64,000 bases of DNA, from positions 32,681 through 96,680 of the forward strand of contig CALVYS010000001.1 of the NCBI GenBank assembly GCA_944372355.1. Direction: 5' to 3'. The translations under genes were made by a program, and so were the position numbers. Below, in pieces: positions 47,667 through 64,000 of the stretch (positions are counted from its first letter, which is position 1; every line of letters begins with the position of its first letter). This DNA is from an uncultured Clostridia bacterium. GTDB taxonomy: Bacteria; Bacillota; Clostridia; Christensenellales; UBA1242. The notes under the pieces are model-generated. The model did no database searches and was not told where the DNA came from. It saw only the letters and a program-made list of their open reading frames with translations.

Positions 47667-47793
47667 AAACAGTTGGTCTTTATTTTCCTAGCGTATAAGA
47701 ACAAGGATATAAATATTTTTATAAAAATGATAATTTTTTTTACATTACTTTATTAATTTAATGTGCTATAATAATATAAAGGGGGAAAATATT

Positions 47794-48381
47794 ATGCCTC
47801 AGTATATAAAAACCAAATCTGATTTACAAAAATTTTTAAATGTTGAATTAAAAATAATATCAAGGTATACGAATTTAAAATTATTAAAATGGTTTCCTAT
47901 TATTATTTACGAAGACCAAATCAAATATAGATTCATTAAAACACTTCGCAAGGCTGAGTACTTCACAAATTCAAACAAAAAGCTGCGGGGGTTTTTTTAC
48001 AGATTAAAATTTTTTCATTTACAAACTAAATATTGTTTAAATATACCGATGAATTGTTGTGATATCGGATTAAATATTGTTCATGTGGGCCCAATAATTA
48101 TAAATGACAATTGTTTAATTGGCAAAAATTTCAAAGTTAATGTCGGTGTAAACATTGGTAATAATGAATTTAAAAGCCATAATAAATGTCCTACAATTGG
48201 GGATAATGTGTTTATAGGGCCTGGTGCTAAGCTGTTTGGAGACATAATAATTGCAAACGGGTGTCGGATAGGAGCTAATGCGGTTGTAAATAAATCTCAT
48301 TTAATAGAAAATTCAACAATTGTTGGTGTGCCTGCAATTCAAAAAAATATTTTTTACAAAGGAAATGAAGATGAAAAATAA
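47794..48381 (+). CDS. left-handed beta-helix (hexapeptide) O-acetyltransferase, CysE/WcaB-like
   Basis: Hexapeptide repeats (IGKNFKVNVGVNIG...IGDNVFIGPGAKLFGDIIIANGCRIGANAVV). GGGGG SD, with a TGC-TATAAT promoter at 47764-47772. Confidence 0.8.
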   Translation: MPQYIKTKSDLQKFLNVELKIISRYTNLKLLKWFPIIIYEDQIKYRFIKTLRKAEYFTNSNKKLRGFFYRLKFFHLQTKYCLNIPMNCCDIGLNIVHVGPIIINDNCLIGKNFKVNVGVNIGNNEFKSHNKCPTIGDNVFIGPGAKLFGDIIIANGCRIGANAVVNKSHLIENSTIVGVPAIQKNIFYKGNEDEK

Positions 48382-49537: not shown

Positions 49538-49563
49538 TTCAGGGTGTGTAAATAACATAAATA

Positions 49564-49592
49564 TTGACTTTTAAGCTATATTGTTGTATAAT
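49564..49592 (+). promoter_or_regulatory. consensus-like promoter in front of the ABC-F gene
   Basis: TTGACT, 17-nt spacer, TATAAT. It shows the listed 49564 start is inside the -35 box. Confidence 0.65.
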
Positions 49593-49611
49593 AACTACAG
49601 AGGTAGAGTCT

Positions 49612-51294
49612 ATGTTGATTTTGAATATTGACAAATTGAATAAAAACTTTGGGTACGGCAGTCTTTTTACAGACCTATCTTTTTCGTTAAATGAAGGAGA
49701 AGTTCTATCAATAGTTGGTCCCAATGGTTCTGGTAAATCTACTCTTTTAAAAATCATTGCGGGATTGGAAAGGCCAGACTCTGGCAAAGTAAATATTAAG
49801 AAAGGCGCAAACGTGGCATATCTTGATCAAAAGAGCGCTATCATAAGTGACAATAGAACAGTTTATGAAATACTTTTAGACGTTTTTGATGATTTAAATA
49901 AAATTAATCAACAAATACAAGAATTTGAAGACAAACTTGCATCGACATCCCCAGATGATAGCAACTACAATAATATTCTTGAAAAATATTGCGCTCTTAT
50001 GGAAAAGTTTTCAAACAATGGCGGATATGATATTGATGTGTCTATCAAAATGGTTGCAGACGGATTAGGTATATCTGAAGAAATGCTCTTACAAAATTAT
50101 AACAGTTTAAGCGGAGGAGAAAAAACCCTTGTTCAACTTGCTAGTTGTTTATTAAAAAAACCTAACTTGTTACTTCTTGATGAACCAACTAATAACTTAG
50201 ACATAAAAAAGATTGAATGGTTAGAAGATTTTATTAAGAGATATAAGGGGGCTATAATAACAATATCTCATGATAGATACTTTATTGATAGAACTTCATC
50301 TAAAATTTTAGAAATAGAGGCTGGAAAAAGTAAAATATTTTCAACAAACTATAGTGGCTATATAAAAGAGAAAGAGCGTGATTTTGAAAAAAATATGGCT
50401 CTTTATAAAGATCAGCAGGAACAGATTAAACACGATATAGAAATGTATAGATACTTTCTGAATCATAATTTTCCTGACAAAGCTAAATATTTTAGAGAAA
50501 AATATGAAAGAGAAATAAGAGAAGCTATTCCAAGGCCTAAAAAACCCAAAAAAATTGATTTTAATTTTGATTTGAATAGGAAATCTAGCAAAATAATAAT
50601 TAAAACAGATAACTTAACAGTTACGAGCCCTCAAAATAAGCCAATATTACAAAATATAAATGTACAGATTTGTGCTAATGAAAGAATTGCTCTTCTTGGT
50701 GATAACGGAAGCGGAAAATCTACTTTTATTAAATCTGTATTAGGACAACAAACATTGCCTGTATATGGCCAAATAACTATAGGTCCAAGCGTGCAAATCG
50801 GTTACTTGCCACAAGTTATTCATTATAATAATGAAAATGATAGTGTTCTTAAAACATTCGAATTTCAGTGCGGATTAGGTGAAGAAAAAAGCAGATCTGT
50901 TTTGTTTAGATTCGGTTTTAATCAAGAAGATGTGAATAAACTAATAAAAAATCTATCTGGAGGAGAAAGAGTAAAATTTAAATTAGCCGAGCTTATTCAA
51001 AAAGGAGTAAATACTTTAATACTAGATGAGCCTACCAATCATATTGACATACCGACAAGAGAATCTTTAGAGGAAGCTTTATCTGATTTTAATGGAACAT
51101 TAATATTTGTGTCGCATGATAGATATTTTATAGATAAATTTGCAAATAAAGTACTTGAGTTTAAAGATGGAAGCGTAAGGGCATATGATGGTGGCTATAA
51201 GTTTTATTTGTCCCAAAGAACAACAGATGCAGGACAATTGAAAAAAACAAAAAAAATAAATGTAAAAAACTATAACGAGGAAAGGGTTCTATAG
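49612..51294 (+). CDS. ABC-F family ATPase (two ABC domains, no TM domain)
   Basis: Two Walker A motifs (GPNGSGKST, GDNGSGKST), two LSGGE signatures, a charged interdomain linker and no membrane segments. Confidence 0.9.
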   Translation: MLILNIDKLNKNFGYGSLFTDLSFSLNEGEVLSIVGPNGSGKSTLLKIIAGLERPDSGKVNIKKGANVAYLDQKSAIISDNRTVYEILLDVFDDLNKINQQIQEFEDKLASTSPDDSNYNNILEKYCALMEKFSNNGGYDIDVSIKMVADGLGISEEMLLQNYNSLSGGEKTLVQLASCLLKKPNLLLLDEPTNNLDIKKIEWLEDFIKRYKGAIITISHDRYFIDRTSSKILEIEAGKSKIFSTNYSGYIKEKERDFEKNMALYKDQQEQIKHDIEMYRYFLNHNFPDKAKYFREKYEREIREAIPRPKKPKKIDFNFDLNRKSSKIIIKTDNLTVTSPQNKPILQNINVQICANERIALLGDNGSGKSTFIKSVLGQQTLPVYGQITIGPSVQIGYLPQVIHYNNENDSVLKTFEFQCGLGEEKSRSVLFRFGFNQEDVNKLIKNLSGGERVKFKLAELIQKGVNTLILDEPTNHIDIPTRESLEEALSDFNGTLIFVSHDRYFIDKFANKVLEFKDGSVRAYDGGYKFYLSQRTTDAGQLKKTKKINVKNYNEERVL

Positions 51295-51298
51295 AGTT

Positions 51299-52330
51299 AT
51301 GAAACGTGTTTATATGTCCACATACATTAGCGGATTTCACAGTGTAATAGAACAAATTCTGAAACAAAAAATTGGCGACGTTCAAATAATTAATAATATG
51401 GACGGTGCCATAATATATAAAAGTAATATAAATATACAAAATTTACATTTGCCTTTTTTTAATAATTCATTTTTGGTGATAGGATATGATTCTTGTAATC
51501 CAAAATTAGATTTTAATAAGTCAATCCAAAATTTCATTTTTAATAACAAATTTTCATTAGATAATGCAACAGATTATATAAATTTCAAGAAGGACAAAAC
51601 TTTTAAAATTCTTGGTATAGATAAAAATCAGCCCTCGTCATTAGATTATAAATTAGTTGAAAATATTGAAAAGAAAATACATCAATCATGCAGATTATCT
51701 GTTGCATTTAGAAAACATGATTTAGATTTTCTTTTTGTAAGAAGAACAGAGGGAATAATCTTATTTTTACTGAAAATAACATATAGTAGAACAACAGAAA
51801 AATTTTTAAATCAAGGAGAATTAAGGCCCGAACTTGCTTACATTCTTTCTTGGTTAGGCGATATTCAAAATCCAGATGTGGTTATGGATCCATTTTGCGG
51901 ACATGGTGCAATTCCTAAAGCAATCGTTAAAAATTTTCATTACAACATGTTGTTTGCAAGTGATTTAGATAAAAGTATGATCGACAAGTTAAAGTTGGAA
52001 TATAAAAACAATAAAAAAAATTTTTATATCAAACAAAGAGATGCAACAGATTTGTCATATTTTGAAAATAATTTTATAGATAAAATTATTACAGATCCCC
52101 CTTGGAATATATTTAACTCAAAGGATAATATAAATTATAAAATATTTTATGAGAAAGTTTTAAAAGAATTTTATCGCATTTTAAAACCAAATGGGACTTG
52201 TATTGTTTTGATGGGGAATGTTAAAGATTTTGAATATGCATTACATAAAGTTAAATTTATGCTCAAAGAACGATTCAATATTTTAGTTAATGGGAAAAAA
52301 GCTAATGTATATAAGTTAATTAAGACCTAA
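51299..52330 (+). CDS. class I SAM-dependent methyltransferase of the UPF0020/RlmL-Trm14-like (DPPW) type
   Basis: VMDPFCGHGAI (motif I) and IITDPPWN (motif IV), preceded by a ~170-aa THUMP-like N-terminal region. Lies 4 nt after the ABC-F stop. Confidence 0.7.
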   Translation: MKRVYMSTYISGFHSVIEQILKQKIGDVQIINNMDGAIIYKSNINIQNLHLPFFNNSFLVIGYDSCNPKLDFNKSIQNFIFNNKFSLDNATDYINFKKDKTFKILGIDKNQPSSLDYKLVENIEKKIHQSCRLSVAFRKHDLDFLFVRRTEGIILFLLKITYSRTTEKFLNQGELRPELAYILSWLGDIQNPDVVMDPFCGHGAIPKAIVKNFHYNMLFASDLDKSMIDKLKLEYKNNKKNFYIKQRDATDLSYFENNFIDKIITDPPWNIFNSKDNINYKIFYEKVLKEFYRILKPNGTCIVLMGNVKDFEYALHKVKFMLKERFNILVNGKKANVYKLIKT

Positions 52331-52543
52331 TACATTAGCTTTTTAAACATTCTTTTATCATCTCGTATATAATTTCATTGATTTTGTTATCTGTCATCCT
52401 ATTAAGCATTTGGGATAAAGTGCATAAGACTTGCGTTCTTCAATTATGTTTTAATTATTATAGAGCCAAATACAAAAGTTGCAATTTTTAATAAAGCCAT
52501 ATTTTTGTTAATATGATATACATTATGCATAGACTATTTCATA

Positions 52544-53701
52544 TTATTCATCTTTCACAAAGTCTCTAATAATTGGTTGCTTACGAACACCTTCCCATTT
52601 AAATCGTGTTGGTCTTTTTGAACAATATTTACAAAATGGGATTGCGTGGGATAATTTATCAATTAGCTCCCAACCGTTATTTGTAGTTGTAAGCTCATAA
52701 CAATCTCTTTTATTTACAATAAAATTGGTAGAAAATTTTTCATTTAATTTATAACATAAAAGGGGATAACAACATTTTGAAATAAGTCCATTGCGTACCA
52801 TCCAGCAAAACTTGCCATAACAATTTCCATATCCGGAATTTTTAATAGACTTTTTATTATTTAAAGTTAAACAAGTGTGGAATTCTTTAATGATGTCTTC
52901 ATTTGAATATTGTTTGTGTCCTTGTCCATAAAAATGCATAATTTTTTTATCGTTAAGATATTTTTCTATATTTGCGATATTTTTATATGTAGGTTCATAA
53001 ACAGTTATGTTTACAACAATGTTATTATCCTTTAGTGAATTGCATGTTTTTTCATTCATGCTTGGTATCAGCAAACCATTTGAAACTAGGAAGATTTTTG
53101 ATTTTGGGAATTTTTTTCTAACATAACAAATGTATCTATCTAGGTCGCTTGCAAGCAATGCTTCTCCGCCCATAAGTCTTATAATGGGAATATTATAATT
53201 TTTAGATAATAAATCGACATCTTTACAAAATTTTTCATAATCAGTTTCATTTTTTTCAAAAGTATTTGCAAAGTGTGTGCAGCCTTTACAGTTCAAATTA
53301 CATAAATCTGTAACGTGCATTTCAACATATTTCATTATTGGCTTTTCTTGTAGATTGTATATTTGGATGCATTCTTCTGATATCATTTTTCCGTTGAAAA
53401 GATTTGTTGATTCTTTAATCATTATATAAATTTTGTTATATCCTTCTTTAAACAAATCATAATAGAACTCATTTTTATATGGCATATCATCTAATATTAA
53501 TATTTCATCAAAAAGTTCTTTTTTTAACAATCTTGAACCAGCAATTTGATAAATTGGTAAGAGGTTGCCACTAGTTGATGATGACATGTTTGTTAATTTA
53601 CATGTAATAGAATAGTATTTATCTTGATTTATTTTTTTTATTATAGAATCTGCAAAACTATTTTCGCCAATTACGGCAATCCTTGTTCCTTTGTTAAACA
53701 T
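52544..53701 (-). CDS. radical SAM enzyme with an N-terminal ~135-aa extra domain and a Cys-rich C-terminal region
   Basis: The CNLNCKGC CX3CX2C motif follows VEMHVTDL. Additional C-terminal cysteines (CYGKFC, KCCYPLLC, FCKYC). Start chosen at the ATG at 53701 (GGAGGA SD), which overlaps the aminotransferase stop. Confidence 0.8.
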   Translation of the reverse strand: MFNKGTRIAVIGENSFADSIIKKINQDKYYSITCKLTNMSSSTSGNLLPIYQIAGSRLLKKELFDEILILDDMPYKNEFYYDLFKEGYNKIYIMIKESTNLFNGKMISEECIQIYNLQEKPIMKYVEMHVTDLCNLNCKGCTHFANTFEKNETDYEKFCKDVDLLSKNYNIPIIRLMGGEALLASDLDRYICYVRKKFPKSKIFLVSNGLLIPSMNEKTCNSLKDNNIVVNITVYEPTYKNIANIEKYLNDKKIMHFYGQGHKQYSNEDIIKEFHTCLTLNNKKSIKNSGYGNCYGKFCWMVRNGLISKCCYPLLCYKLNEKFSTNFIVNKRDCYELTTTNNGWELIDKLSHAIPFCKYCSKRPTRFKWEGVRKQPIIRDFVKDE

Positions 53702-55007
53702 TTGCAACAATCCTCCTTCCATACAAATAATCTTCAATAGATTTACATATAATATCAATTCCATGCTTAAATTCTTCTTCTGTTGTACAAATTGATGGCA
53801 TTAAGCATATTGCTTGACACATCTGGCTAACTATTAGTCCATTGTTCCTCAATCTTATATCAAAATCGGGAATATTTAAATCTGAATTTGTTTTAGGGTC
53901 AATTAATTCAATAGCTATCATCAAGCCAATTATTCTTATTTCTCCTATATATTCTTTATTTTTAAGATCTGAAAGAATATTTTTAAATACTTCTTCTTTT
54001 TGGTGAACAACATCTAATAGATTTTCATTTTTGATTATATTCAAAGTAACACTTCCACAAGTACAAGCTATAGGATGCCCACTATTCGTAAATCCATGTC
54101 TAAATTGACGATCTCTACGTTGCGATAAAAAAGTTTTGTAAATTTTTTCGGTTACTATGACACCTGCAAGTGGCTGAACTCCGTTTGAAATACCTTTACC
54201 GAACAAAATCATATCTGGATATATATTGTATTTCTGACATGCAAACATAAAACCAGTTCTGCCTGTTCCGCACGATATTTCATCGAAAATCACTATTATA
54301 TTGTTTTTATGACATAAATCAACAACCCCTTGTAACCATTTATTATCTGGTATTATAATACCACCAACTCCCATTATGGGCTCTAATATCAAAGCGCAAA
54401 TATTTTCGGCACCATAAAAATTTATTTGGTATTCAAGATCTTTTAGGCAAGCATAATGACATACACTTTTACTTAAACCCATTCGACATTTATAACAATA
54501 TTGAGGATAAATTTTTAAAGTGTCTTTTAATAGTGGATCAAATGGTATTCTGTCCCAAGGATCCCCAGATGCACTCATGGCACCCAATGTAGAACCATGA
54601 TAACTTTCATATAATGATATAACTCTTCTTTTATTACCTTTGTTCTTTGAATAAAAATGACCTCTTGCAAGTTTAATAGATGTTTCTACCGCTTCTGCTC
54701 CGCCAGATGTAAAAAATACATGTTTAAAATCATTTGGCAAATATCTCAGCAATTGATCTGCAAGTAGTTCTCCAGCTGAATGTTGAAATCTTATATTTGG
54801 GATATATTCAAATTGAGAAAGTTGTTTATTTATTTCTATTGCATATTCTTTTCTCCCATACCCTAAAATAGTATTCCAGGTTCCAGAATTTAAATCCAGG
54901 TACTCTTTACCATCCTCATCTATTATTTTATTTCCAAAAGCTTTTATAATTTTTTTTCTTTCAAAATACATTTGTGTTTCCGATGTCCAAAATTGTTTTG
55001 TGTCCAT
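53694..55007 (-). CDS. class-III (BioA-like) PLP aminotransferase
   Basis: SGGAEAVETSIKLAR, DEISCGTGRTG and the FGKGISNG Lys motif. Termini resemble BioA-type enzymes (FWTSETQM..., ...LMPSICTTEEEF). Confidence 0.85.
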   Translation of the reverse strand: MDTKQFWTSETQMYFERKKIIKAFGNKIIDEDGKEYLDLNSGTWNTILGYGRKEYAIEINKQLSQFEYIPNIRFQHSAGELLADQLLRYLPNDFKHVFFTSGGAEAVETSIKLARGHFYSKNKGNKRRVISLYESYHGSTLGAMSASGDPWDRIPFDPLLKDTLKIYPQYCYKCRMGLSKSVCHYACLKDLEYQINFYGAENICALILEPIMGVGGIIIPDNKWLQGVVDLCHKNNIIVIFDEISCGTGRTGFMFACQKYNIYPDMILFGKGISNGVQPLAGVIVTEKIYKTFLSQRRDRQFRHGFTNSGHPIACTCGSVTLNIIKNENLLDVVHQKEEVFKNILSDLKNKEYIGEIRIIGLMIAIELIDPKTNSDLNIPDFDIRLRNNGLIVSQMCQAICLMPSICTTEEEFKHGIDIICKSIEDYLYGRRIVANV

Positions 55008-55009
55008 AT

Positions 55010-55939
55010 TTATCCCCCATATTTTTTATCGTTTTTTAACATTTTTTTTAATATTGTTTTTCTGTTAATCCATATAAAATTTAATTTAAGTTTTAAGTTA
55101 AAAGAATGAGAGAGCTTTAAATATTCATTTTTAGCCTTATATGCCAAATCATCTTTATAAAGCCGAAGCAAGTCTAAAATTCGATTCTTATAATAATTGT
55201 ATTTTACCAGTTCTTTTTCCTTATTAGTTAATAAATTAAAATATCGTTGACACATTTCATAATAAATTTCATCAGCAATTAAGTTTTTTTCTGTTATGCC
55301 GGTTATTCCACTATTTTTATCATGTGCGTAATAAGTGACTAAATCTTCTTTTATTACGCCAATTTTATATCCGTTTGCAAGAAGCTTCAATAACACAACG
55401 CCATCTTGATGAGAATGGATAGATTCAAAACCTCCAATTTTAAGTAGTATGGATTTTTTGAGCATCCAAAAAGATGTCCCCGCAATGTTAAAACACATTT
55501 GAATGGCTAAAGGATTTCCTTCATGACTGGTATTTTCCATTTCTTTTTGACCATTTGGATAAATAATAGTCCCATAACAATACACTAATGATATTGAATT
55601 GTTTTCGTTTAAATAAGAAATTTGTTTTTCAATTTTGTTCGGTTTAAATTCATCATCATCGTCAAGAAAAGCAACAAATTCTGCAGAAGCGTGTTTAACC
55701 CCGACATTTCTAGCTTGTGCTCCACCTAGATGCAAACTTTTAGTAATAAATTTTACATCTGGATATTCGCAATCTATTTTTTCTTTTATTTTATTCCTAA
55801 AAGAAAGATCCTCATAATTATCATCAACAACGATAATCTCTATGTTTTTGTAGGATTGATTTTTAACACTATCTATAGCTCTAAAAAGGGTGTCAAATCT
55901 TTGATATGTGGGGATTATTACACTAACTTTATCCATCAT
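55010..55939 (-). CDS. family-2 glycosyltransferase
   Basis: VSVIIPTYQRFDTLFRAIDSVKNQSYKNIEIIVVDD...FLDDDDE. Confidence 0.85.
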   Translation of the reverse strand: MMDKVSVIIPTYQRFDTLFRAIDSVKNQSYKNIEIIVVDDNYEDLSFRNKIKEKIDCEYPDVKFITKSLHLGGAQARNVGVKHASAEFVAFLDDDDEFKPNKIEKQISYLNENNSISLVYCYGTIIYPNGQKEMENTSHEGNPLAIQMCFNIAGTSFWMLKKSILLKIGGFESIHSHQDGVVLLKLLANGYKIGVIKEDLVTYYAHDKNSGITGITEKNLIADEIYYEMCQRYFNLLTNKEKELVKYNYYKNRILDLLRLYKDDLAYKAKNEYLKLSHSFNLKLKLNFIWINRKTILKKMLKNDKKYGG

Positions 55940-55942
55940 TTA

Positions 55943-56803
55943 TTATCCTTTAAAATTTTTTAATGAGTTTATTTTATTTTTTAAAAACGGATTCAAAAGT
56001 TTTATCTTATAATCTTGTAATCCGTAACAAAATGAAAAATTTAATTTTTTTCTGTTACAATAATTTATAATTTTTACATAGTTATAAATCCCAAGAGATA
56101 AAGATTTATAATATTTGTCCCACCAAAAAATGCAGTAATATAATGTATTCGTTTCTTTGCTTTCATAGACAATACCCTCTGCAATAGATATACCTTGTGA
56201 ATTTATTAAGCTAATTGTATGAAAATTATCGGTACTGTAAAAGTAATTATATGCAGCTATTGCATCTTTGGAAAAATTTTTGTTAAATTTTTCATTACAG
56301 TATTTATTCCAATGTTTTAAAACATTTGGAACGGTAACATTATCAACTTTTAAGCTTATTAAACAATCGTTGCGCCTTATCAAATAACTGTATTTTTTTT
56401 GAAATTTCAAATAATTAAAATCCTCATTAACGGAACACGCTATAAAATCTCCATATGTGGCTAAATTTATAAGATGCCCACTTGCTGCATAATCCAAGTG
56501 ACTTAATAATAATTTTATAAAACTTTTTTCATAATTTAATGGGAAGTGATATGAAAAAGTTATTTCATATTGATTTCCAAACTTATCTGTTAACTTTTTA
56601 ATGTTAAAAGAAATTGCCAATAAAACAATACATTCACTTTTGTTAAACTTATCTTTAATTTTGTCTATTTCTAAAGTATCAATATGTTTTGTTTTTTCTT
56701 GTAGCAAGTCAACAACATCAATATTTTTGTTAATTTTTTTGCCATTGATAAAAATGTCTTCATCAATTACTTGAATCTTTAAGCCCTTACTGCTCAAAAA
56801 CAT
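55943..56803 (-). CDS. hypothetical, C-terminal half resembles CelD/BioF2/FemAB-like GNAT acyltransferases
   Basis: ...GISIAEGIVYE...SLSLGIYNYVKIINYC...FSFCYGLQDYKIKL matches the fDfg.G...YK end motif of Acetyltransf_6-type proteins (from memory). Start chosen at the ATG at 56803 (GAGGTG SD). Confidence 0.5.
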   Translation of the reverse strand: MFLSSKGLKIQVIDEDIFINGKKINKNIDVVDLLQEKTKHIDTLEIDKIKDKFNKSECIVLLAISFNIKKLTDKFGNQYEITFSYHFPLNYEKSFIKLLLSHLDYAASGHLINLATYGDFIACSVNEDFNYLKFQKKYSYLIRRNDCLISLKVDNVTVPNVLKHWNKYCNEKFNKNFSKDAIAAYNYFYSTDNFHTISLINSQGISIAEGIVYESKETNTLYYCIFWWDKYYKSLSLGIYNYVKIINYCNRKKLNFSFCYGLQDYKIKLLNPFLKNKINSLKNFKG

Positions 56804-57572
56804 TTTTTGCACCTCTAAATAACCAAACTCTAACAGTATGTTCGGGAGCATATTTATATGTTAAGTCTTCTAATTGTTGTAAACGCTGAATTTCATTTTT
56901 CCACAAAATATGTAGCTGAGAACGATAAAATTTAATTGCATTGAGTTTTATGTGCCAATTTTTTTCTGAAACTTTTATCAAATTGAATTCCATATCTTGC
57001 CCCCAATTTGATTTCTTTCTAGATTTATAATAATAGCATACATAGGGCACGTCTTCATAGAAATAGATTGGTTTTTTTATTATTTTTGATGCCATCACAG
57101 CGGCCCTATGGAGAATTGTATGGTCTGCATGTGAACCTAATCCCATGGGCGCAAAAATAATATCAGCATCTGCAACTTCAATCTCTATACGCTTACTTAT
57201 ATCCTTGGTCAATTCATTGTCTTCATTCTTCAAGTGATAAATTTCTTTCAAATTAGGGTATAAAATCGCGCCTTTATTGTTTTTTCTATATAGGCATTCA
57301 TAATAACCTAGATGTTTATACTTGCAATTTAACCAGTTGAGAGCTGCAATGTCTTCATTTGACCTAAAGTCCATTGATTTATGGTCAAGAAAACAATTGC
57401 TATGAAATTGTTTTGCTGCCGCTGAGAGGTCTTTTTCGTCTGGGCATCCCGTAAAAAATGTGATCACACATACATCATCGCCTTGCTCGGTAAACTTATC
57501 AATTAATTCTCCACATGACAACACACAATCATCAAAATGAGGCCCTAAAAAGACTATTTTCTTCATAATCAT
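56787..57572 (-). CDS. PIG-L/LmbE-family N-acetylglucosaminyl deacetylase
   Basis: FLGPHFDDCVLSCGE and HADH metal-binding motifs. ATGA overlap with the GT4 stop. Confidence 0.8.
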   Translation of the reverse strand: MIMKKIVFLGPHFDDCVLSCGELIDKFTEQGDDVCVITFFTGCPDEKDLSAAAKQFHSNCFLDHKSMDFRSNEDIAALNWLNCKYKHLGYYECLYRKNNKGAILYPNLKEIYHLKNEDNELTKDISKRIEIEVADADIIFAPMGLGSHADHTILHRAAVMASKIIKKPIYFYEDVPYVCYYYKSRKKSNWGQDMEFNLIKVSEKNWHIKLNAIKFYRSQLHILWKNEIQRLQQLEDLTYKYAPEHTVRVWLFRGAKNVFEQ

Positions 57573-58756
57573 CTCCTGATAATCTGTTGATAGACTTTAT
57601 CAATTTTATTCTTCATATCTACTATATTAAATTTTTCTTTAATAGTTTTTTTTGCATTTTGAGAGATCTCTTTTAATTTTGAATCATTGCTAATTAATTC
57701 GATTACTACTTTGGACATAGTCTCATAGTCTCCCTTGTTTACTAATATCCCGTTTGATCCATCTATTATTTCGTGAAGGCCACCTACATTTGTGGCTATT
57801 ACAGGAATTCCTGCCGCCATGGCTTCTAAAACGCACCTTGGAGTGCCTTCGGTATCAGAGGTTAGCAATAACATATCAATAGAGGAATAAATAATATCAA
57901 CAGGATCTATAACTCCAATAAAGTTAATTTTATTTTGCAAGCGCTTGTTCTTTACTAATGTTTGCAGGATAGGCAACTCATCTCCACTTCCCACTACAAT
58001 AAAGTTTAAATTAGATTTACTTTTTAAAATATTCTCACAACATGTTATAAATCCATCAACTCTTTTTTCTGGTGCCAAACGTCCAATATATGCTATCGTT
58101 TTGTAATTATTGTTAATATTGTGTTCATGCTTAAATTCTTTTACATCTTTTAATTGGTAATGTTCTGGAGTTTTAACACCATTTTTAATATTAAATAAAA
58201 GTTTTTTACGATATTTCTTTTTCGCCTCTAATCTTTTTAAATCTTTTTCACAAACAGTTATTAAGGATTGAGCAACAGCGTATGATGCAAAATCCAGCAT
58301 TGTATAAAATTTATCTTTTATGTTATTTTCAATCCAGCCATGGCATGTCATAACCGTTGGAATTTTTCCGTATGTATGTACATATTTCTTTTTTAATGCA
58401 TAGGTTAGATAATTCGCATTGTATTGGTGACTATGAATAACTTTTATATGATTTAAAAAAGAAATTTTGCCCAATGATTTTAATATTCTACTGATGTTCT
58501 TTTCACGAACGCAACTTATATAGCCTATGTTATTCATTTGTAATTTCTCTTCATACTCTGGATTTCTACAAAATAAAACCACAGGTTTTAATCCCGGTGT
58601 CTCCCTTTGAACAATTGATAGGTGCAAAACATGTGTGTCAGAACCTCCAATTCTTCCTGCTGGTTGTGGGACGATTACTTGTAACACCAAATCTTGATTT
58701 TCGTAATCGTCAGGAATATTTATTTTCAAGTTATCAATATTGTATATCATATTCAC
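57569..58756 (-). CDS. GT-B fold family-4 glycosyltransferase
   Basis: C-terminal EGTPRCVLEAMAAGIPVIATNVGGLHEII signature. Confidence 0.9.
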   Translation of the reverse strand: MNMIYNIDNLKINIPDDYENQDLVLQVIVPQPAGRIGGSDTHVLHLSIVQRETPGLKPVVLFCRNPEYEEKLQMNNIGYISCVREKNISRILKSLGKISFLNHIKVIHSHQYNANYLTYALKKKYVHTYGKIPTVMTCHGWIENNIKDKFYTMLDFASYAVAQSLITVCEKDLKRLEAKKKYRKKLLFNIKNGVKTPEHYQLKDVKEFKHEHNINNNYKTIAYIGRLAPEKRVDGFITCCENILKSKSNLNFIVVGSGDELPILQTLVKNKRLQNKINFIGVIDPVDIIYSSIDMLLLTSDTEGTPRCVLEAMAAGIPVIATNVGGLHEIIDGSNGILVNKGDYETMSKVVIELISNDSKLKEISQNAKKTIKEKFNIVDMKNKIDKVYQQIIRR

Positions 58757-59733
58757 CTCATATTATTAATAATTTCTTCTAACACGGTTTTATTGTTTAT
58801 CTTAATTGCTTTATTTAATAATTTTGTGGCAGTAATATAATCTTTACCGTACGCAATGCTAATTGCTTCTTTTAAAAAGAATTTAGCACGATTATTTTTT
58901 ATAATAGCATTGTTGACATTTGGGAACCTTTTGAAATAAACCTTTTCTGCCTTTTTAAAACCATTCACATCGGTTTTGGCCTTTAATTTGTAAAAATTTT
59001 TAATCTTGGCTCGTGAGGAACTATCTGTATTAATTTTGATTCGATATAAAGTTTCGCATCCTTTTAAGAAGACAAATTTTCCACTATGTGCTCCATACCT
59101 CAACCAGGTGTGGGAGTCTTCGGAAACTCGTTTAATTGGAAATTTTTCCATATATGCTAAGGATGTTTTTACTGAAGTGGCAGAAGTTAAATTAGTATAG
59201 TTTTTTTTCAGCGCTATTTTTAACCATGAATTTTCTCCTTCAACAATGTCTGATTTGTGTCCATCCAATATTTCCTTGATAGAATCGCATAAATTTTTTT
59301 CTGGCACGAGATTATCAAACTCATCTATTACTTTAAACGAAGAATAAACTACATTGACTTTAGGGTCGTCGAAAATTTTCCTTGTTTCCCTTAATCTATC
59401 TTTATTAGAGATGTCGTCTGAATCATTGTACAATATAAATGGGCACCTAAGCTTATAAGCCATTTCTATACCAATATTCCTTGAAAAACCTGGTCCTTTA
59501 TTCTTTTTATTTGATAATACAATAACCCGGGAATCTTTTAAAGCGATTTTATCAAGATAATGTTTTATGGATTTATCTTTTGAGCAATCATCAATAATTA
59601 TCAATATTAAATTTTTATCGCTTTGATTTAAGATGGATTTTATACTTTTTTCTAAAACTGGCCGAAAATCATTCATATTATCTGTAAAAACTGGCATTAT
59701 AAATGCGGCTGTTTTATCGTTTATCATTTTCAT
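58753..59733 (-). CDS. family-2 glycosyltransferase
   Basis: AAFIMPVFTDN...LILIIIDDCSKD...YNDSDD. Start chosen at the ATG at 59733 after GGAGA. Confidence 0.8.
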   Translation of the reverse strand: MKMINDKTAAFIMPVFTDNMNDFRPVLEKSIKSILNQSDKNLILIIIDDCSKDKSIKHYLDKIALKDSRVIVLSNKKNKGPGFSRNIGIEMAYKLRCPFILYNDSDDISNKDRLRETRKIFDDPKVNVVYSSFKVIDEFDNLVPEKNLCDSIKEILDGHKSDIVEGENSWLKIALKKNYTNLTSATSVKTSLAYMEKFPIKRVSEDSHTWLRYGAHSGKFVFLKGCETLYRIKINTDSSSRAKIKNFYKLKAKTDVNGFKKAEKVYFKRFPNVNNAIIKNNRAKFFLKEAISIAYGKDYITATKLLNKAIKINNKTVLEEIINNMR

Positions 59734-60564
59734 CTTTATCTCCATTATGTTTACTTGAAATAGAATATCATATTTTACTTTACTTTGCAAGAATGTATAA
59801 GATTTTTATTTTCAACTTATTAGTTGAATTTAGCTGATTTTATGACTAATTAACTTACAAAAGTTTGTGATATTATGGATATATAAATGAAGAAAAGTTG
59901 AGATAGATGCGATTTGAAGAGGAAAAAGATATATTTTGAAATGAAAAGGCAAAGAAAAAAAACATCTTTCAAAGAACCAAAAAGGAGTATTTGCTAAAAG
60001 TTGCAACATAAATATATTTGACTAATCTTGGAACAAATAGCTTAGAAAAATTTTGTAAAAGAATAATCTAAACAATACTACAGCCGGCGTCTATTCAATT
60101 TGTATTATGTAGCCAAATACAAAAGTGCAAATGCAATAAGTAATCCTCTTATAAAAATGATTGAGCATGTAACAGAATCATTTGAGAGAAAGCAGCAAAA
60201 TGTGAAGAATTGGAACTTGGTGAAGAAGAAAATCTTTGCGATGAAATTATTGAACTTGAACGAAAGCTTGGAGAAAAAAAAGTAAAGAACAAGGACGAAG
60301 AAAGCGCAGGTAAAAATATTTTGAAATGTAAAAAGCACTAGAGGCGCTTTGCTATAAAACACACTAAAAACAAGGTTGCTTGCAAAAATCTGATACTTTT
60401 GAGAAAAAAATGATGAATTTTTAAGTACTTGAATCGAGCCACTAAATTATCATTTGTAGTTCGATTTTTTGTTTTTAATTGAAAATTTCTAGGAATGTGG
60501 AGGTCGCAAATACAGCAAATATTGTAACATGCGATGGCGGCATCTAGCCTCTATAAAGGTTTTA

Positions 60565-60639
60565 TGGTGCTCCCGTCAGGGCTCGAACCCGAACTAATGG
60601 TTCCGAAGACCATTGTGCTATCCATTACACCACGAGAGC
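60565..60639 (-). tRNA. tRNA-Arg (anticodon UCG), CCA encoded
   Basis: Hand-folded. Acceptor GCTCTCG/CGGGAGC, D arm GTGT-AATGGATA-GCAC, anticodon arm ATGGT-CTTCGGA-ACCAT, T arm TCGGG-TTCGAGC-CCTGA. Confidence 0.9.
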
Positions 60640-60726
60640 AGGAGCTATAAAGTTTTAAATTAGTGTTTGCAATAATTTCTGAGGAACAATTAGTTCCTTA
60701 GGGGCCCTTAAAATCTAAAAGATTTT

Positions 60727-60891
60727 GGGGAGCGGAGCATGGCAACGAGAGCGTAGCCAGCGAGCTGGCGAGCGTGAAAGTTGCCAAATGCGAGCAGGTT
60801 CCGAAGACCATTGTGCATTAGGAGCACTCACTCGCTTGCGATGGTGGGTGTGACGACGCCGCATCGCAGATCCGTTTTCACCACGAGAGCA
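60727..60891 (-). ncRNA. candidate structured element built around exact tRNA-Arg fragments (function unknown; could be a decayed or rearranged tRNA/att scar)
   Basis: GC-rich island in AT-rich spacer. It contains exact copies of tRNA-Arg nt 1-12 (60879-60891) and the D-3'/anticodon arm (60797-60816). These are separated by a 62-nt hairpin-forming insert and followed by a 70-nt segment with nested stems (GGCAAC/GTTGCC, GCCAG/CTGGC). Confidence 0.3.
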
Positions 60892-61051
60892 AAAGTGTTG
60901 AGTGATCCTACCAGTTATATTACACCAATTAAATAAATTTTGCAAATAGAAATTTGTATATCAAAAAATTGTTCCAATATGACAAAAAATATTATAAATG
61001 TTTTTATAAATCATATTTTTGTGATAAAATATAACTATATTTGGAGGAAAA

Positions 61052-63040
61052 ATGAAAAAGTTTTTCACTAATTTTCTAGTTTATGGCATTCTTTTTGCAA
61101 TTCTCGGTTATGCAATAGGTGTTGGACTTGCTTTTTTGATAAACAACTTGACATGGGAGTCGGCCTTGCTGAGTGATTCTATTGCGTTTATATGTTTGGC
61201 GATAGGTGTGGTTTCTGGATTTATAATGGCAGTCACTCTCAAAGTCAAAAAATCTGACGCAAACAAAAAGAAGGGCAAATCGGCTTCGGGAGAGGAAATG
61301 GAGTTGCACTTTGATGCAGGTTTTGTGACAAGAGACAAGATTTTGGCGGACAAACTTTTGATCAACTCCACATGGAGTTCGTTGCCGTCCTTAAAAAACA
61401 CCGGCATGGTGTTTAGGAATGAGTATTTTGGATCTCGTTATGAAGTGACAATGAAAGACGAAACACATGCTTTGATCATTGGAACGACCGGCACGGGTAA
61501 AACCACTATGATTTTGGAGCCAACCATCAGAATTTTGGCTCACACGGCAGAAAAGCCTTCGCTTGTGATTGCCGATCCAAAAGGAGAGCTTTTTGACCAT
61601 CACGCAAAAGCTTTGATGAACGAAGGATATGATGTTCGAGTGTATGATTTGGACAATCCTTACATCTCTTCCAGATGGAACCCAATGGAAAAACCTTTTA
61701 AAATGTATCATCAGGCTTTAAACATTTACAAGGAAGCGAAAAAATATCAAAATTGCACGCCGGAACAGGCAGGCAAGGCGCGAATGGAAGGCAGAGAATA
61801 TGGCGATGTTTGGTATGAATTTGACGGAGTTGCATTCCCAAATGAGGAGGAACTCAACAAACAGCTCAATTCTCGCAAACAGGAACTTTTAACGGCGGTT
61901 TCTGCCGAAATCAAAGGCATTGCAGCGTCGCTTTGTCCGGTTTCACAGGGCACAAATGACACGATCTGGGAACAAGGCGCGCAGGACTTTTTGAATGCAT
62001 TGATGCTGGCTATGTTGGAAGATAGCACGGATCAAAGGCTTGGCGAAAACAAGTTGAGAATGGATCAATACAACTTCTACAATCTTTACAAAATTGCAAA
62101 CAAAAAAGATCCAACCAATGCAGATGACGCCTTTGGCCCATTGAAAAGATACTGCATGGGCAGGCCGCAAACCTCCAATGTCAGTGCTTTGGCCTTGTCC
62201 GTTATCAACGCTGCGCCTTCAACGACAAAATCATATATGTCAGTGCTTTCGGGTAAGATCAACAACCTCATGAGTGATATGGGCATCTGCTACGCCACCT
62301 CGGGTTGCGACATTCAGTTCACAGAATTTGTTGACAGACCAACTGCATTTTTCATCAAAATTCCAGATCACAAAAAAGAGCGTCACTCTCTTGCAACCAT
62401 TTGCATTTCACAGCTTTATCGAACGCTTGTTGATGTTGCAAACAATTATCCAAACAGAAAACTTCCACGCCACGTTTACTTTATTTTGGACGAGTTTGGA
62501 AATCTGCCAGTTATTCAAGATTTTGGCACGATGATCACGGTTTCACGTTCAAGAAATATAATCTTTGAAATCGTCATACAGTCTTTCACCCAGCTTGACA
62601 CCAAGTATGGCAAAGAGATTGCTGAAACACTAAAAAGCAACTTCAATATTCAAATCTTCTTGGGAACGGAAGATCCTGCAACCAGGGAAGCATTTTCCAA
62701 GAGTTGCGGCGAAATTCAGCTCACCACACAAGAAGAATCCACCACAGAAAACAAGGGCAAAACCGAGACTTCAAAATCGGTTTCCACCTCGCAGCAACGT
62801 GTTACCAGGCCGCTTGTCGATCCATATGAGCTTTCAGTGCTGCCTTATGGAACCGGCATAGTCAAACTTTTCAGATACAATCCAATCAAAGTCAAACCAG
62901 CGCCATGGTATAAAACAAGTCAGATGACAAAATATGATCCACTGGTTGTTTCAAAAATAGGCAATTCGCTTGATGAAAACAAAGTGTTTTACGATATCGA
63001 CAAACGAAACAACATTGTGCTTGGAAGAAGCGCTTGGTAA
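61052..63040 (+). CDS. type IV secretion coupling protein (VirD4/TraG family)
   Basis: Two N-terminal TM segments, Walker A IIGTTGTGKTT, Walker B YFILDEFGNLP. Terminator at 63047-63077. Confidence 0.9.
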   Translation: MKKFFTNFLVYGILFAILGYAIGVGLAFLINNLTWESALLSDSIAFICLAIGVVSGFIMAVTLKVKKSDANKKKGKSASGEEMELHFDAGFVTRDKILADKLLINSTWSSLPSLKNTGMVFRNEYFGSRYEVTMKDETHALIIGTTGTGKTTMILEPTIRILAHTAEKPSLVIADPKGELFDHHAKALMNEGYDVRVYDLDNPYISSRWNPMEKPFKMYHQALNIYKEAKKYQNCTPEQAGKARMEGREYGDVWYEFDGVAFPNEEELNKQLNSRKQELLTAVSAEIKGIAASLCPVSQGTNDTIWEQGAQDFLNALMLAMLEDSTDQRLGENKLRMDQYNFYNLYKIANKKDPTNADDAFGPLKRYCMGRPQTSNVSALALSVINAAPSTTKSYMSVLSGKINNLMSDMGICYATSGCDIQFTEFVDRPTAFFIKIPDHKKERHSLATICISQLYRTLVDVANNYPNRKLPRHVYFILDEFGNLPVIQDFGTMITVSRSRNIIFEIVIQSFTQLDTKYGKEIAETLKSNFNIQIFLGTEDPATREAFSKSCGEIQLTTQEESTTENKGKTETSKSVSTSQQRVTRPLVDPYELSVLPYGTGIVKLFRYNPIKVKPAPWYKTSQMTKYDPLVVSKIGNSLDENKVFYDIDKRNNIVLGRSAW

Positions 63041-63128: not shown

Positions 63129-63608
63129 ATGGAATATGACGATTTCGCTTGCCCAACGCCAGATGAGTATGAGGCTCTGGCCAGGGCGTATTCCAATTCT
63201 TTGAAACAAAAAGGTTTTATCTTTGTTAGGCTTGACACTGAGGGCACGAATGTTTTGATCGATGAGGTTTTTGACCTCATGTTTAAATTGCGCGCGTCTT
63301 ATCGTATACTTGGGCAGTTTATGGGCTGTGACAAGTTTTATGCATTAAATGAAGAGCAACTTGAACTTTTGAGAGACAAATTCAATTACAAACAAAATCG
63401 CGGCTTTAAAATGAATTGGAACAAGACAAAGTGCTTTTTAAACACGATAAGTCTGGAAAATCGTTTGCTCATCAAGCTGTTTTTGCTTGCACAAAAAAGC
63501 GACGAGTTTGAGTTTCTCGTCGGCTTAATCTTTCAACGCATGCGGTTGTCCGCGGATTTATATGAAATTGGTGATGTTATGAGCGCCAGGTTGGGGTTAG
63601 GCGAGTAA
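63129..63608 (+). CDS. hypothetical protein (mobile-element cargo)
   Basis: 159-aa ORF after the T4CP terminator. No family recognised. Confidence 0.45.
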   Translation: MEYDDFACPTPDEYEALARAYSNSLKQKGFIFVRLDTEGTNVLIDEVFDLMFKLRASYRILGQFMGCDKFYALNEEQLELLRDKFNYKQNRGFKMNWNKTKCFLNTISLENRLLIKLFLLAQKSDEFEFLVGLIFQRMRLSADLYEIGDVMSARLGLGE

Positions 63609-64000
63609 GAAGTCCAGCACCTTTGGCAGCGCTTTGTCCAATGCGCGTTGATATGAACGCAATTTTTCTGGTGAATATTTGACCTCTCTGTTTGGAGCTT
63701 CCACCAGTTTTTTTGCTGTTATTTGCATTTCATCGACAATGCCTTCACAAAGCAGATTGCCAAGCACTGCCATATAGTTTTTTTCATCTATATCATTTTT
63801 TTGAATGATCTGTTGAAGTTTGTCGCTGTCGCTGATTTCCTCAAAAGCATAATTCAAGAAAAATTGCAATTTTTCGATAGTGAATTCATTGCCATTTGCT
63901 GCGGCGAGAATCGCCCATTGCATGTAAAGGTCATAGTTTTGCGGCACCAAATTTTTGACGCCGTCTTTATAGTAATAGCTTATCACATCTTGTGCGATGG
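63597..64000 (-). CDS. hypothetical protein with a Sel1-like repeat pattern, 5' end beyond the window
   Basis: The frame stays open to nt 64000 upstream of the listed GTG. YYYKDGVKN...QWAILAAANGN resembles Sel1/SLR repeats (weak). Confidence 0.4.
   Translation of the reverse strand, partial: IAQDVISYYYKDGVKNLVPQNYDLYMQWAILAAANGNEFTIEKLQFFLNYAFEEISDSDKLQQIIQKNDIDEKNYMAVLGNLLCEGIVDEMQITAKKLVEAPNREVKYSPEKLRSYQRALDKALPKVLDFLLA

Follow-up and report, generated by a model that had tools for sequence, protein, structure and literature searches.

A GC-rich tRNA-Arg(UCG) mosaic in an uncultured Clostridia bacterium: a possible recombination scar

According to passages in two earlier reports, the anticodon loop and stem of tRNA genes are a usual crossover site of tyrosine integrases, the common cores are typically 30-45 bp, and the sequence of the incoming element normally restores the gene that it splits (PMC10865867; PMC4383910). 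Recombination with the 5'-distal part of a tRNA is rare and documented, as stated in a passage of PMC6563490 that cites Zhao & Williams 2002. Elements which disrupt a host tRNA while supplying a complete tRNA of the same isotype are also known (PMC10865867).

The locus described here lies in a window of 64,000 nt, which is the whole stretch of DNA that was analysed and to which all coordinates refer. The intact, or rebuilt, tRNA-Arg(UCG) gene occupies 60565..60639 on the minus strand (ARAGORN; 59.2 bits with the Rfam tRNA model), and its nt 1-41 represent the downstream copy of a direct repeat. Analyses of the DNA upstream of this gene confirmed the partial tRNA-Arg copies reported in an initial annotation: nt 1-12 are found exactly at 60879..60890 (minus strand) and nt 22-41 as an exact 20-mer at 60797..60816 (minus strand; window-wide E=3e-6), the two being collinear, at most 75 nt apart and separated by 62 nt (60817-60878). 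The 20-mer covers the D-stem's 3' half, the anticodon stem's 5' strand, the loop and 3 nt of the 3' strand, and the match to the tRNA stops at nt 41|42, 3 nt 3' of the anticodon loop. The UCG loop that had been described as preserved is indeed kept as sequence, but identity ends inside the anticodon stem, of which just 3 of the 5 pairs can form. A T-arm and 3' acceptor strand are missing from the element, as had been noted, and neither ARAGORN nor Rfam made a call there, even at E<=10. The 12-mer at 60879..60890 reads as the 5' end of the original tRNA gene, still joined to its native promoter region.

Comparison with related loci (referred to below by their numbers) clarified this arrangement. 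In L012, from species B, the upstream copy of nt 1-41 is unbroken, with a 41/41 match, and is followed by the inserted module and then by the full tRNA. This excludes a chance origin of the repeats and indicates that the basic structure is a 41-nt direct repeat flanking a short insertion. The module (60640..60796, minus strand) is 157 nt long in the window and 166 nt in L012, and each of the five alleles that are complete or nearly so (window, L014, L015, L018, and L012) carries it. It was missing at the same position in L016, L009, L005, and L011, which keep the order of coupling-protein-like (T4CP) gene, promoter and tRNA-Arg with no element. The alleles sampled represent two species and five alleles, all from a single origin. 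An assembly artefact was rejected, as the arrangement recurs in independent assemblies from different samples and with different alleles.

The contrast in base composition between the element and its surroundings was also borne out, with 55% GC at 60715-60900 against 19% at 60901-61051 and 30% at 60640-60726, in a window of 38.8% GC overall. The unit reaches down to 60640, including an AT-rich hairpin and an inverted tRNA copy that were missing from the initial annotation, and its AT-rich surroundings are two-fold, a strain-specific island of 28.6% GC lying on one side and a divergent promoter region on the other. The open reading frame across the element (60715-60945) had rightly been taken for an artefact: it has no Pfam match, was not called as a gene in any assembly, and has its frame broken by indels of 5, 7, and 9-10 nt between alleles, and coding potential was rejected on these grounds.

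The D-loop region of the dead fragment (60817..60878, minus strand) was delimited by allele comparison. A 62-nt insert had been said to replace the D-loop, and 62 nt are present, but they are better described as a 53-nt insertion after GGAT plus small changes: the 53-nt hairpin (60817-60869) is a second insertion after AAAACGGAT (60870-60878), which replaces TAATGGATA. The 7-bp stem reported within it was found, pairing TGCGATG (60862-60868) with CATCGCA (60837-60843). In other alleles this insertion measures 58 nt. The window, L014, L015, L018, and L008 carry the D-loop block, which splits their repeat, and L012 does not. As L012 and L018 are 98% identical overall yet differ by this block, it is separable and either present or absent within one species. 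A 22-mer from the block had 0 matches in 185,579 species genomes, and the proposal that it is a duplicate of the module was rejected for lack of any similarity between them. The block is a second event, and the repeated nested integration suggested earlier is not supported as such.

The module is made up of two hairpins, one long and GC-rich and the other AT-rich, of a dyad derived from the tRNA in inverted form and of an AT-rich spacer. It has approximately 60% GC, compared to 39% for the window, and no similarity to the leaders of sister species (L005, L009, L010, L011, and L016); together these features indicate that it is foreign, and its descent from an ancestral leader was rejected. The nested stems described earlier were both found: folding gave a long hairpin, GCAT..GGCAAC / GTTGCC.ATGC (60737..60791, minus strand), with an internal loop of 10+9 nt and an apical hairpin (60756-60769). 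Its stems do not vary among alleles; in the apical stem a single compensatory change was seen, the pair being G-C in the window and A-T in L014/L015, with A.C in species B. The apical loop has 4 nt in the window; elsewhere it has 10-15 nt, the figure varying with the way the apical stem is drawn. Of the internal loop, the 3' strand (TACGCTCTC) is constant and includes GCTCTCG, identical to tRNA nt 1-7, and the 5' strand is variable. The window allele is without the CTCGC strand of one hairpin, and one H1 pair is broken in the other alleles. The AT-rich hairpin, CCCC-AAAATCT-TTT-AGATTTT-AAGGG (60705..60730, minus strand, consensus fold), does not differ between alleles except at a site just 3' of it, 60704 in the window, which occurs in three states.

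An inverted-repeat search identified, at 60678..60698 on the minus strand, the tRNA segment across the break point copied in inverted orientation, with a local dyad AGGAAC-TAATT-GTTCCT inside the copy. Read as its reverse complement, 60678-60696 agrees with tRNA nt 31-49 at 16/19 positions in the window (17/19 in other alleles), and local alignment reduced this to tRNA nt 36-49 (13/14 in the window, 14/14 in L012), the exact inverted 14-mer occurring in L012, L014, and L018. Only 14 of 2000 shuffles were as good (p about 0.007), and the copy matches the A45 tRNA variant that is specific to species A and B. A more extended inverted homology to the 3' half was rejected, significance being limited to the 14-19-nt core, as was covariation of a T-loop base with the inverted copy, which was true in two alleles and broken in L014 and L018.

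The locus resembles the ends of tyrosine-integrase tDNA islands (Islander) in several respects. There is an intact tRNA with a directly repeated fragment (nt 1-12 and 22-41 in the window, nt 1-41 in L012), the 41-nt block falls within 30-45 bp and ends beside the anticodon loop (criteria in PMC10865867), and the uninterrupted site is found in relatives (L016, L009, L005, and L011). It differs from such ends in that the displaced fragment is the 5' part, the rare reversed orientation, rather than the usual 3' part, and in that 157 bp separate the repeats, with no integrase, no cargo and no promoter of its own for the rebuilt gene. CIME-type remnants, as described for Streptococcus ICESt, are kilobases long and can be mobilised in cis by an incoming ICE. 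They share with this locus attL/attR-like repeats without an integrase, but the remnant here is 157 bp and nothing indicates its mobilisation.

In tRNA-dependent lysogeny of actinobacteriophages (Guerrero-Bustamante & Hatfull 2024, PMC10865867) a host tRNA is likewise disrupted, the junction itself does not restore it, the incoming DNA brings along a complete tRNA of the same isotype, and the site is in the anticodon region. Here, in contrast, there is no prophage or integrase, the host is a member of the Clostridia, the tRNA lies 157 nt from the junction, and 41 nt are shared instead of about 10; that model would also need an extra deletion step at this locus. The RtT, or tyrT-operon, repeats of E. 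coli (RF00391) are similar in being tRNA-linked, co-transcribed repeats with a piece of tRNA. However, the tRNA piece in them is the 3' part and they are located downstream of the gene, whereas the element here carries the 5' part and lies upstream, and its score against RF00391 was 13 bits against a threshold of 45 (E=8), which is no match. IS110 bridge RNAs and IscB-TnpB omega RNAs are also structured RNAs of ~150-200 nt with loops or flanks identical to target DNA, but there is no cognate gene, family match or mobility in this case, and the identity to the tRNA is a contiguous 41-nt fragment rather than short loop guides. A hairpin-dense, tRNA-like mosaic can come from ordinary recombination at tRNA genes, and a few related loci are sufficient to resolve it.

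Our preferred, if tentative, reading is that the element is a recombination scar from an integrase-type insertion at the anticodon arm of tRNA-Arg(UCG). It most likely does not act as a gene product with its own function, as a decoy or as a guide RNA, nor does it belong to a conjugative element. The original gene would have stood behind its promoter, beside the VirD4-like gene, and would have been split after nt 41 by inserted DNA which brought either its own tRNA nt 1-41 or a tRNA-Arg gene in full. This would have re-formed an intact tRNA 157 nt downstream and stranded the old 5' part at the promoter. The agent would most likely have been a tyrosine-integrase-type element with the anticodon arm as attachment site, in the rare 5'-side orientation, and the parental attP would read tRNA nt 1-41 and then TGCTCGCATTTGGCAAC. 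We speculate that the element body was later lost, for example through recombination of an element-borne tRNA-Arg with the displaced native 3' fragment, and that attL, a 157-nt remnant and attR were left behind. A hairpin of 53-58 nt may subsequently have inserted into the D-loop of the dead fragment, cutting the 41-nt repeat into 12 + 20 nt, which should slow precise deletion of the scar. The locus would then have moved between two species within a tract of ~2.3 kb whose right end is in the tRNA fragment.

Of the three readings offered by the initial annotation, an att scar is the sole one to fit the data, through the repeat structure, the junction near the anticodon loop and the empty sister sites; it is partly supported, as no integrase or parent element was found and its nested integrations were not borne out, and a duplication or template switch is nearly as good. 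No integrase gene, remnant or parent element was identified in the window, in the 10 kb beyond it or in any related locus, and the genes neighbouring the repeats had no recombinase domains in any locus. BLAST of plasmids and phages gave tRNA matches only; five exact patterns had 0 matches among viral contigs; and, of two module patterns in metagenomes, one had 0 matches and the other had two chance matches in unrelated GC-rich DNA. The absence of an integrase or parent element from the loci and public collections weakens the case for an integrase origin, and the inverted copy of the break-spanning segment, which is not standard in attP arms, is a further point against it. In addition, a large 5'-side element would need a tRNA promoter of its own, and since none is evident, an insertion that was small from the start is favoured.

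A promoter-like site, TTGCAA-17-TAATAT, was read from the sequence at 60917..60945 on the minus strand. With 8/12 matches it falls below the 9-of-12 threshold of our promoter scan, and it is conserved in L014/L015. The 9-mer at 60919-60927, which had been counted as a further piece of the tRNA, is at chance level, as there are many equally good 9-mers in the window; it sits in the -10 part of the promoter-like site, is mutated in L015 and is missing in the second species. In species B (L012) there is an 11/12 promoter, TTGAAA-17-TATAAT, whose end lies 10 nt ahead of fragment nt 1; in L016 the intact tRNA follows a promoter of the same type at a distance of 22 nt. The stretch immediately preceding the rebuilt tRNA had no site at the 9-of-12 threshold. 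The position of the fragment right behind the native promoter, together with the lack of a comparable one before the rebuilt gene, suggests that the element is probably transcribed as a 5' leader. Most likely, fragment and module would be read from the native promoter as a leader of 200-270 nt and then removed by RNase P. The configuration is rare: the displaced part is the 5' one, the tRNA was rebuilt at a distance of only 157 nt, and its own leader probably contains the scar.

The window and L012/L018 are 95.6% identical over a tract of ~2.3 kb, compared to 67-73% in both flanks. Selection had seemed to be indicated by conservation of the element (92-100%) against that of the T4CP gene (72% at the nucleotide level), but this was overturned by comparison of the other flank: a recently exchanged ~2.3-kb tract explains the high identity between the species without selection. 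High identity of two metagenomic loci is thus no evidence of selection before their flanks have been compared. The sequence alignable between species starts exactly at tRNA nt 1, the end point of the shared tract is inside the tRNA sequence, and the locus was moved by homologous recombination. A tract recombined between two species and ending in a tRNA illustrates how tRNA genes can be anchors for gene flow between diverged genomes. Metagenome assemblies break at this site because of the short tRNA repeats.

The strongest alternative to an integrase-type scar, unlikely but worth serious consideration, is a local accident of replication or repair. The 5' region of the tRNA would have been tandemly duplicated, or a template switch would have occurred at the quasi-palindrome GGAACC|ATTAGTTC, with GC-rich filler captured at the joint, for instance if foreign DNA was being taken up and underwent homology-facilitated illegitimate recombination; the outcome would be the same non-functional scar, transcribed as a leader. 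A process of local duplication demonstrably acts at the locus, given the tandem duplications in L023 of species D, whose leader has a 28-nt tandem duplicate (CTATTT plus tRNA nt 1-21) with no foreign DNA and a further fragment, TAATGCACAATGG; the corresponding fragment there is without the anticodon loop sequence. An accident would also be consistent with the break being at the centre of the tRNA dyad and the module holding an inverted copy of exactly that segment, with a small size that fits continued read-through expression, with no recombinase having been found anywhere in the loci searched, and with the homologous recombination that demonstrably moved the locus and had its end point in the tRNA. 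However, ~100 nt of GC-rich hairpin DNA and a block of 53-58 nt would be left without an explained origin. Neither block resembles the other or nearby sequence, and no donor was found in our searches. Moreover, identity that ends near the anticodon loop and a block that runs exactly to nt 1 have the look of a gene-restoring att site.

It is rather improbable that fragment and module have been co-opted as a functional 5' leader or stable small RNA, whether it pairs with the 3' half of tRNA-Arg and so controls how the tRNA folds or is processed by RNase P, or serves as a tRNA-half bait for an anticodon nuclease. Such an RNA would very probably be transcribed, as the only good promoter is upstream, and the long hairpin keeps its stems in all alleles, with a single compensatory change and an apical loop that is free to vary. 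Two species and several diverged alleles have retained the scar despite direct repeats through which it could be deleted, and the copy of nt 22-41 is 20/20 identical in every allele. Set against this, the G9A change of L014/L015 is carried by both tRNA copies, and exact repeats can therefore be explained by gene conversion or concerted evolution. Divergence among module alleles (about 6-10%) is no lower than in flanking coding DNA (3-4%), the CTCGC strand of one hairpin is lost in the window allele and one H1 pair is broken in the others, L012 is without the D-loop block, and sister species manage without the element.

Tests of the RNA itself also argued against a functional leader. No RNA family could be matched, in line with the initial annotation: Rfam searches of two alleles on both strands returned none at the gathering threshold or at E<=10, the best scores (SNORD35, 15 bits; snoU18, 14 bits; RtT, 13 bits) being noise, and a known family was rejected. 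The check for covariation across related loci, which had been proposed as a test, gave a covariation term of 0, with 1 compensatory pair among 66, on too few independent sequences, and the minus-strand fold was not unusual (z = -0.8). The idea of a tRNA mimic or decoy did not hold up, as the anticodon stem is cut to 3 bp, fragment nt 11 is C in 4/5 insert-carrying alleles, breaking the 11-24 pair of the D stem, L023 has lost the loop, and the family models call the intact tRNA alone in two alleles. A leader that proved both stable and active would amount to a tRNA-derived regulatory RNA of a new kind, a reading which the data do not require.

We consider it improbable that fragment and module are other than inert, either as an enzyme-less hitch-hiker that uses homology to the tRNA or as a stable tRNA-half RNA derived from the leader. 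In the former version of this joint reading, the unit would persist and spread between species through the universally conserved tRNA, with the D-loop insert as a device against deletion; in the latter, the RNA would modulate maturation of tRNA-Arg(UCG) or titrate an anticodon-directed factor.

There is very little likelihood that the element is an active miniature mobile or switchable element, such as a 198-bp non-autonomous integrative element acted on in trans or an invertible segment, or that it is a guide RNA resembling bridge or omega RNAs for an enzyme encoded elsewhere. The symmetric 10+9-nt internal loop under a small hairpin has an outline reminiscent of bridge-RNA loops, GCTCTCG of its 3' strand equals tRNA nt 1-7, inverted sites of 11-19 nt flank parts of the module, and the D-loop block is present or absent within a species. 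Nevertheless, six-frame translations of the window and L001 (with 10 kb added) had no IS110-type DEDD motif, and no IS110, IS1111, TnpB, IscB, invertase or integrase was among the Pfam matches or called genes of the window, L012, L014, and L018; a nearby IS110-type transposase was rejected on the missing motif and the lack of a recombinase Pfam match. The earlier suggestion of a guide RNA for a recombinase outside the window failed likewise, with no IS110, TnpB or IscB within ~10 kb on either side of any locus and no cognate recombinase or nuclease gene in the window, L001, L012, L014, and L018. As the 5' part of the tRNA is contiguous in L012, the 12- and 20-nt "guides" are simply a gene fragment. 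No second copy was found in the window, in ~200 kb of related loci searched with a structure-aware covariance model or in pattern searches of public collections; the dispersed copies expected of a MITE were not seen in the sequence covered. Inverted sites, as in an inverton, are present, yet every independent assembly has the same orientation and a single junction, and all occurrences come from one insertion at one site.

The notion of a tRNA-Arg decoy carried by a neighbouring conjugative element has next to no credibility: a VirD4, or T4SS coupling-protein-like, gene does lie 160 nt from the element (Pfam PF02534, 1e-44) and the UCG loop sequence is kept, but at least seven related species have that gene in this position beside a shared set of three small genes, GlmS follows further on, and the arrangement is kept in species at 63-75% identity. 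Neither a relaxase nor VirB4 nor an integrase is near it in the window or related loci, the element is in a tract across a species-specific boundary from it, and the anticodon stem lacks some of its pairs. As an orphan, the VirD4-like gene is the sole component present of an integrative conjugative element, and there is no conjugative element here, contrary to what had been assumed; a lone VirD4-like gene is no evidence of one. Lastly, the plus-strand fold was somewhat better than that of the minus strand, with z = -2.4. A plus-strand RNA was rejected, as it would be antisense to the tRNA and would lie behind a hairpin and T-run, just downstream of the tRNA, that we read as a terminator in strains without the island.

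Upstream of the intact tRNA-Arg(UCG) gene (60565-60639, minus strand; identified by ARAGORN and Rfam), exact copies of tRNA nt 1-12 (60879-60890) and nt 22-41 (60797-60816) were present in minus-strand sense within hairpin-dense, GC-rich DNA, in agreement with the initial annotation. The copies are separated by 62 nt of other sequence (60817-60878) with a 7-bp stem (TGCGATG/CATCGCA) and followed by a GC-rich tail with nested stems, whose long hairpin (60737-60791) contains an apical hairpin (60756-60769). The 20-mer has E = 3e-6 window-wide by itself, and the 12-mer is collinear with it. The GC content is 55% over 60715-60900, against 19% for the promoter region above it, 30% for the spacer below it and about 39% for the whole window. 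ARAGORN and Rfam did not recognize the element, even at E<=10. The 76-codon ORF across it, previously regarded as a translation artefact, is indeed one: it had no Pfam match, was called as a gene nowhere and is broken in frame by indels in other alleles. A tRNA 9-mer at 60919 had also been counted as part of the element and can be set aside, as it is at chance level, mutated in L015, missing from species B (a second element-bearing species) and contained in the -10 part of a promoter-like site (TTGCAA-17-TAATAT, 60917-60945).

In the sister-species loci L005/L006, L009, L011 and L016 (63-70% identity), a plain tRNA-Arg(UCG) gene lies between a gene for a VirD4-like coupling protein (T4CP) and a variable downstream gene, and no tRNA fragments were found in the tRNA-Arg leader. 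This is the ancestral arrangement. L016 has the complete order (200-aa gene, tRNA-Arg, promoter, T4CP), with a promoter, TTGAAA-17-TATAAT (11/12 match), that ends 22 nt upstream of the tRNA. The element was also found in species B (L012, L018 and L008), whose T4CP is 75% identical to that of the window in amino acids and 72% in nucleotides. In L012, an 11/12 promoter ends 10 nt upstream of an unbroken copy of tRNA nt 1-41, which is followed by 166 nt starting TGCTCGC and then the complete tRNA. The unbroken copy indicated that the basic structure is a 41-nt direct repeat of the 5' part of the tRNA around a module, which is 157 nt in the window (60640-60796) and 166 nt in L012. The same structure can be described as 198 bp inserted after nt 41; because the insert brought its own nt 1-41, the gene was rebuilt. 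The 62-nt sequence described as replacing the D-loop is present, but it represents a separate, second insertion, of 53 nt in the window and 58 nt elsewhere. This D-loop block occurs in the window, L014, L015, L018 and L008 and is absent from L012, which is 98% identical to L018 and L008.

Within the module, the long hairpin is followed in minus-strand sense by an AT hairpin (60705-60730) and then by an inverted copy of the tRNA segment spanning the break point (60678-60696; its reverse complement resembles tRNA nt 31-49). Of the 19 positions of the inverted copy, 16 match in the window and 17 in the other alleles. An exact core 14-mer, GGAACCATTAGTTC, occurs in L012, L014 and L018, and in a shuffle test only 14 of 2000 shuffles scored equally well. 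The break at nt 41|42 is in the middle of the tRNA dyad represented by this copy. A longer likeness of the module to the whole tRNA 3' half and an apparent mirrored substitution between tRNA and module both failed against the other alleles. No part of the module varies more than the apical loop of the long hairpin, which has 4 nt in the window and, according to where the apical stem is drawn, 10-15 nt in the other alleles. In L014/L015 this loop holds a C6 run (TCGCCCCCCTTC; L014 2386-2400). The 3' strand of the internal loop is invariant.

The fragment represents the original 5' end of the tRNA gene and remains joined to the gene's promoter; directly before the rebuilt tRNA, no site reached the 9-of-12 threshold of the promoter scan. 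Based on these observations, transcription most probably runs through the fragment and module, giving a long 5' leader that RNase P would remove. We consider it likely that the element is a scar, taking an integrase-type origin and a local accident together. Among the earlier proposals an att scar was closest to the evidence, although no parent element or recombinase came to light: there were no other copies in plasmids and phages or, with five patterns, in viral contigs; the D-loop insert 22-mer was not found in species genomes; and of two patterns searched in metagenomes, one had no match and the other 2, both chance matches in unrelated GC-rich DNA. A tyrosine-integrase-type insertion at the anticodon arm is favoured because the 41-nt block fits the common cores of such enzymes, usually 30-45 bp, and the anticodon loop is a frequent crossover site (PMC10865867). 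It is also favoured because split tRNA genes are normally restored by the islands concerned (in passages of PMC10865867 and PMC4383910) and the 5'-side orientation is rare but documented (in a passage of PMC6563490). On the model of tRNA-dependent lysogeny, an element with its own tRNA-Arg would disrupt the host gene, and its tRNA would then recombine with the displaced native 3' fragment, deleting the rest of the element. By this analogy, such a two-step route would yield exactly the present structure.

The main rival, the local accident, would be a duplication or a template switch at the quasi-palindrome that also captured filler DNA. Two features speak for it: the module contains the break region in inverted form, and the rebuilt gene lacks any promoter. 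It is further supported by the leader of L023, a more distant species (T4CP 65% identical) with a different set of tRNA-Arg 5' fragments (L023 4778-4840, minus strand). There, the fragment TAATGCACAATGG, which begins about 60 nt upstream of the tRNA and has its GCACAATGG core at -56, shows the same GGATA-less junction as the fragment in the window, and a 28-nt tandem duplicate (CTATTT plus tRNA nt 1-21), with six bases substituted, abuts the tRNA. The scar, for which we favour the integrase-type origin, belongs to a known class, tRNA-gene recombination relics, of which it is an unusual yet explicable example.

In L014/L015, G9A is present in both repeat copies, indicating that the repeats evolve in concert, which explains their exactness without invoking function. 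The D-loop insert splits the 41-nt repeat into 12 + 20 nt and should lower precise deletion, which may be why insert-bearing alleles predominate.

It appears unlikely that the leader has gained a function. The fold of the element was unremarkable on the minus strand (z = -0.8) and somewhat better on the plus strand (z = -2.4), but an RNA from the latter would be antisense to the tRNA. A consensus fold of four alleles had 66 pairs, a covariation term of 0 and a single compensatory change, which lies in the apical stem: where the window has G-C, L014/L015 have A-T and species B has A.C. One hairpin has lost its CTCGC strand in the window allele, the 7-bp stem has one pair broken in the other alleles, and nt 11 is C in 4/5 insert-bearing alleles, with the 11-24 D-stem pair broken. 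A covariance model identified no second module copy in about 200 kb of related-locus sequence.

Selection was considered as a reading of the high identity of the module. Over its first 100 nt, the window and L012 differ only at one A/G site and by a 9-nt indel at the hairpin apex; the T4CP genes of the two are only 72% identical. The window is 67-73% identical to L012/L018 at the far left and over at least 5.8 kb on the right, GlmS included, and 95.6% identical over a ~2.3-kb tract (window 45694-47647 plus 60565-60890; L012 1465-3817; L018 2138-4547). This tract extends from within a 76-codon membrane-protein gene (~45694) through Ham1-like, desulfoferrodoxin and 204-aa genes, the tRNA and the module to nt 1 of the tRNA fragment. 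That it is far more identical than both flanks indicates exchange between the two species by homologous recombination, with one end anchored in tRNA sequence. Given this exchange, the high identity is not evidence of selection; divergence between alleles is also no lower in the module (6-10%) than in flanking coding DNA (3-4%).

The suggestion of a decoy RNA carried by an adjacent conjugative element was not supported. Identity to the tRNA ends inside the anticodon stem, so that just 3/5 stem pairs are left, and no relaxase, VirB4, integrase or other conjugation genes were found near the T4CP gene (61052-63040, plus strand; PF02534, 1e-44) at the loci compared. Its homologues form a graded series in uncultured Clostridia, from 75% down to 45% identity, and the homologue of one neighbouring gene carries the label Candidatus Caccovivens. 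Every locus compared has, directly after it, an identical set of three small genes encoding 159 aa, 186 aa and 240 aa (window 63129-63608, plus strand, and 63597-63986, minus strand; whole block L001 10001-13854); they have no firm domains, the 240-aa one having a weak DUF975 match. Acetyltransferase, GlmS and APH-type kinase genes come next at loci extending far enough. The position of the block is unchanged across related uncultured Clostridia (at least seven species, 63-75% identity). The T4CP gene is thus an orphan fixed in this lineage, apparently domesticated, and not an ICE. A guide RNA was equally unsupported, with no recombinase domain or IS110-type motif near any allele.

A strain-specific island of 12.9 kb (47648-60564; 28.6% GC) starts exactly after the CCA end of the tRNA and replaces about 115 nt, among them the final codons of the 204-aa gene and a presumed terminator formed by a hairpin with a T-run behind it. 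It encodes a hexapeptide transferase, UDP-glucose (sugar) dehydrogenase, ABC-F ATPase, methyltransferase, radical SAM protein, aminotransferase, glycosyltransferase and PIG-L family protein; no recombinase was found. L014/L015, from the same species as the window (T4CP 99% identical), lack the island and keep the element. In the island-bearing strain, AAACCTTTATAG (60551-60562) and AAAACTTTATAG (60645-60656), 12 nt with one mismatch in minus-strand sense, directly flank the tRNA downstream and upstream, respectively; the pair may have arisen by chance, the DNA being AT-rich, or may record how the island joined. In the window, an extra minus-strand ORF (45020-45650) separates the Sir2-like gene from the 76-codon gene; it has a metallo-beta-lactamase-type HPHFDH motif and an apparent in-frame stop, and is missing from L012, L014 and L018. 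Elsewhere, one minus-strand ORF (11835-20621) spans about 2,930 codons.

Three metagenomic contigs end within a tRNA-Arg gene or fragment (L008 position 1, L010 position 1 and L017 position 4267), consistent with assemblers breaking at a short repeat. Given its contig end, L010 could hide the same kind of element.
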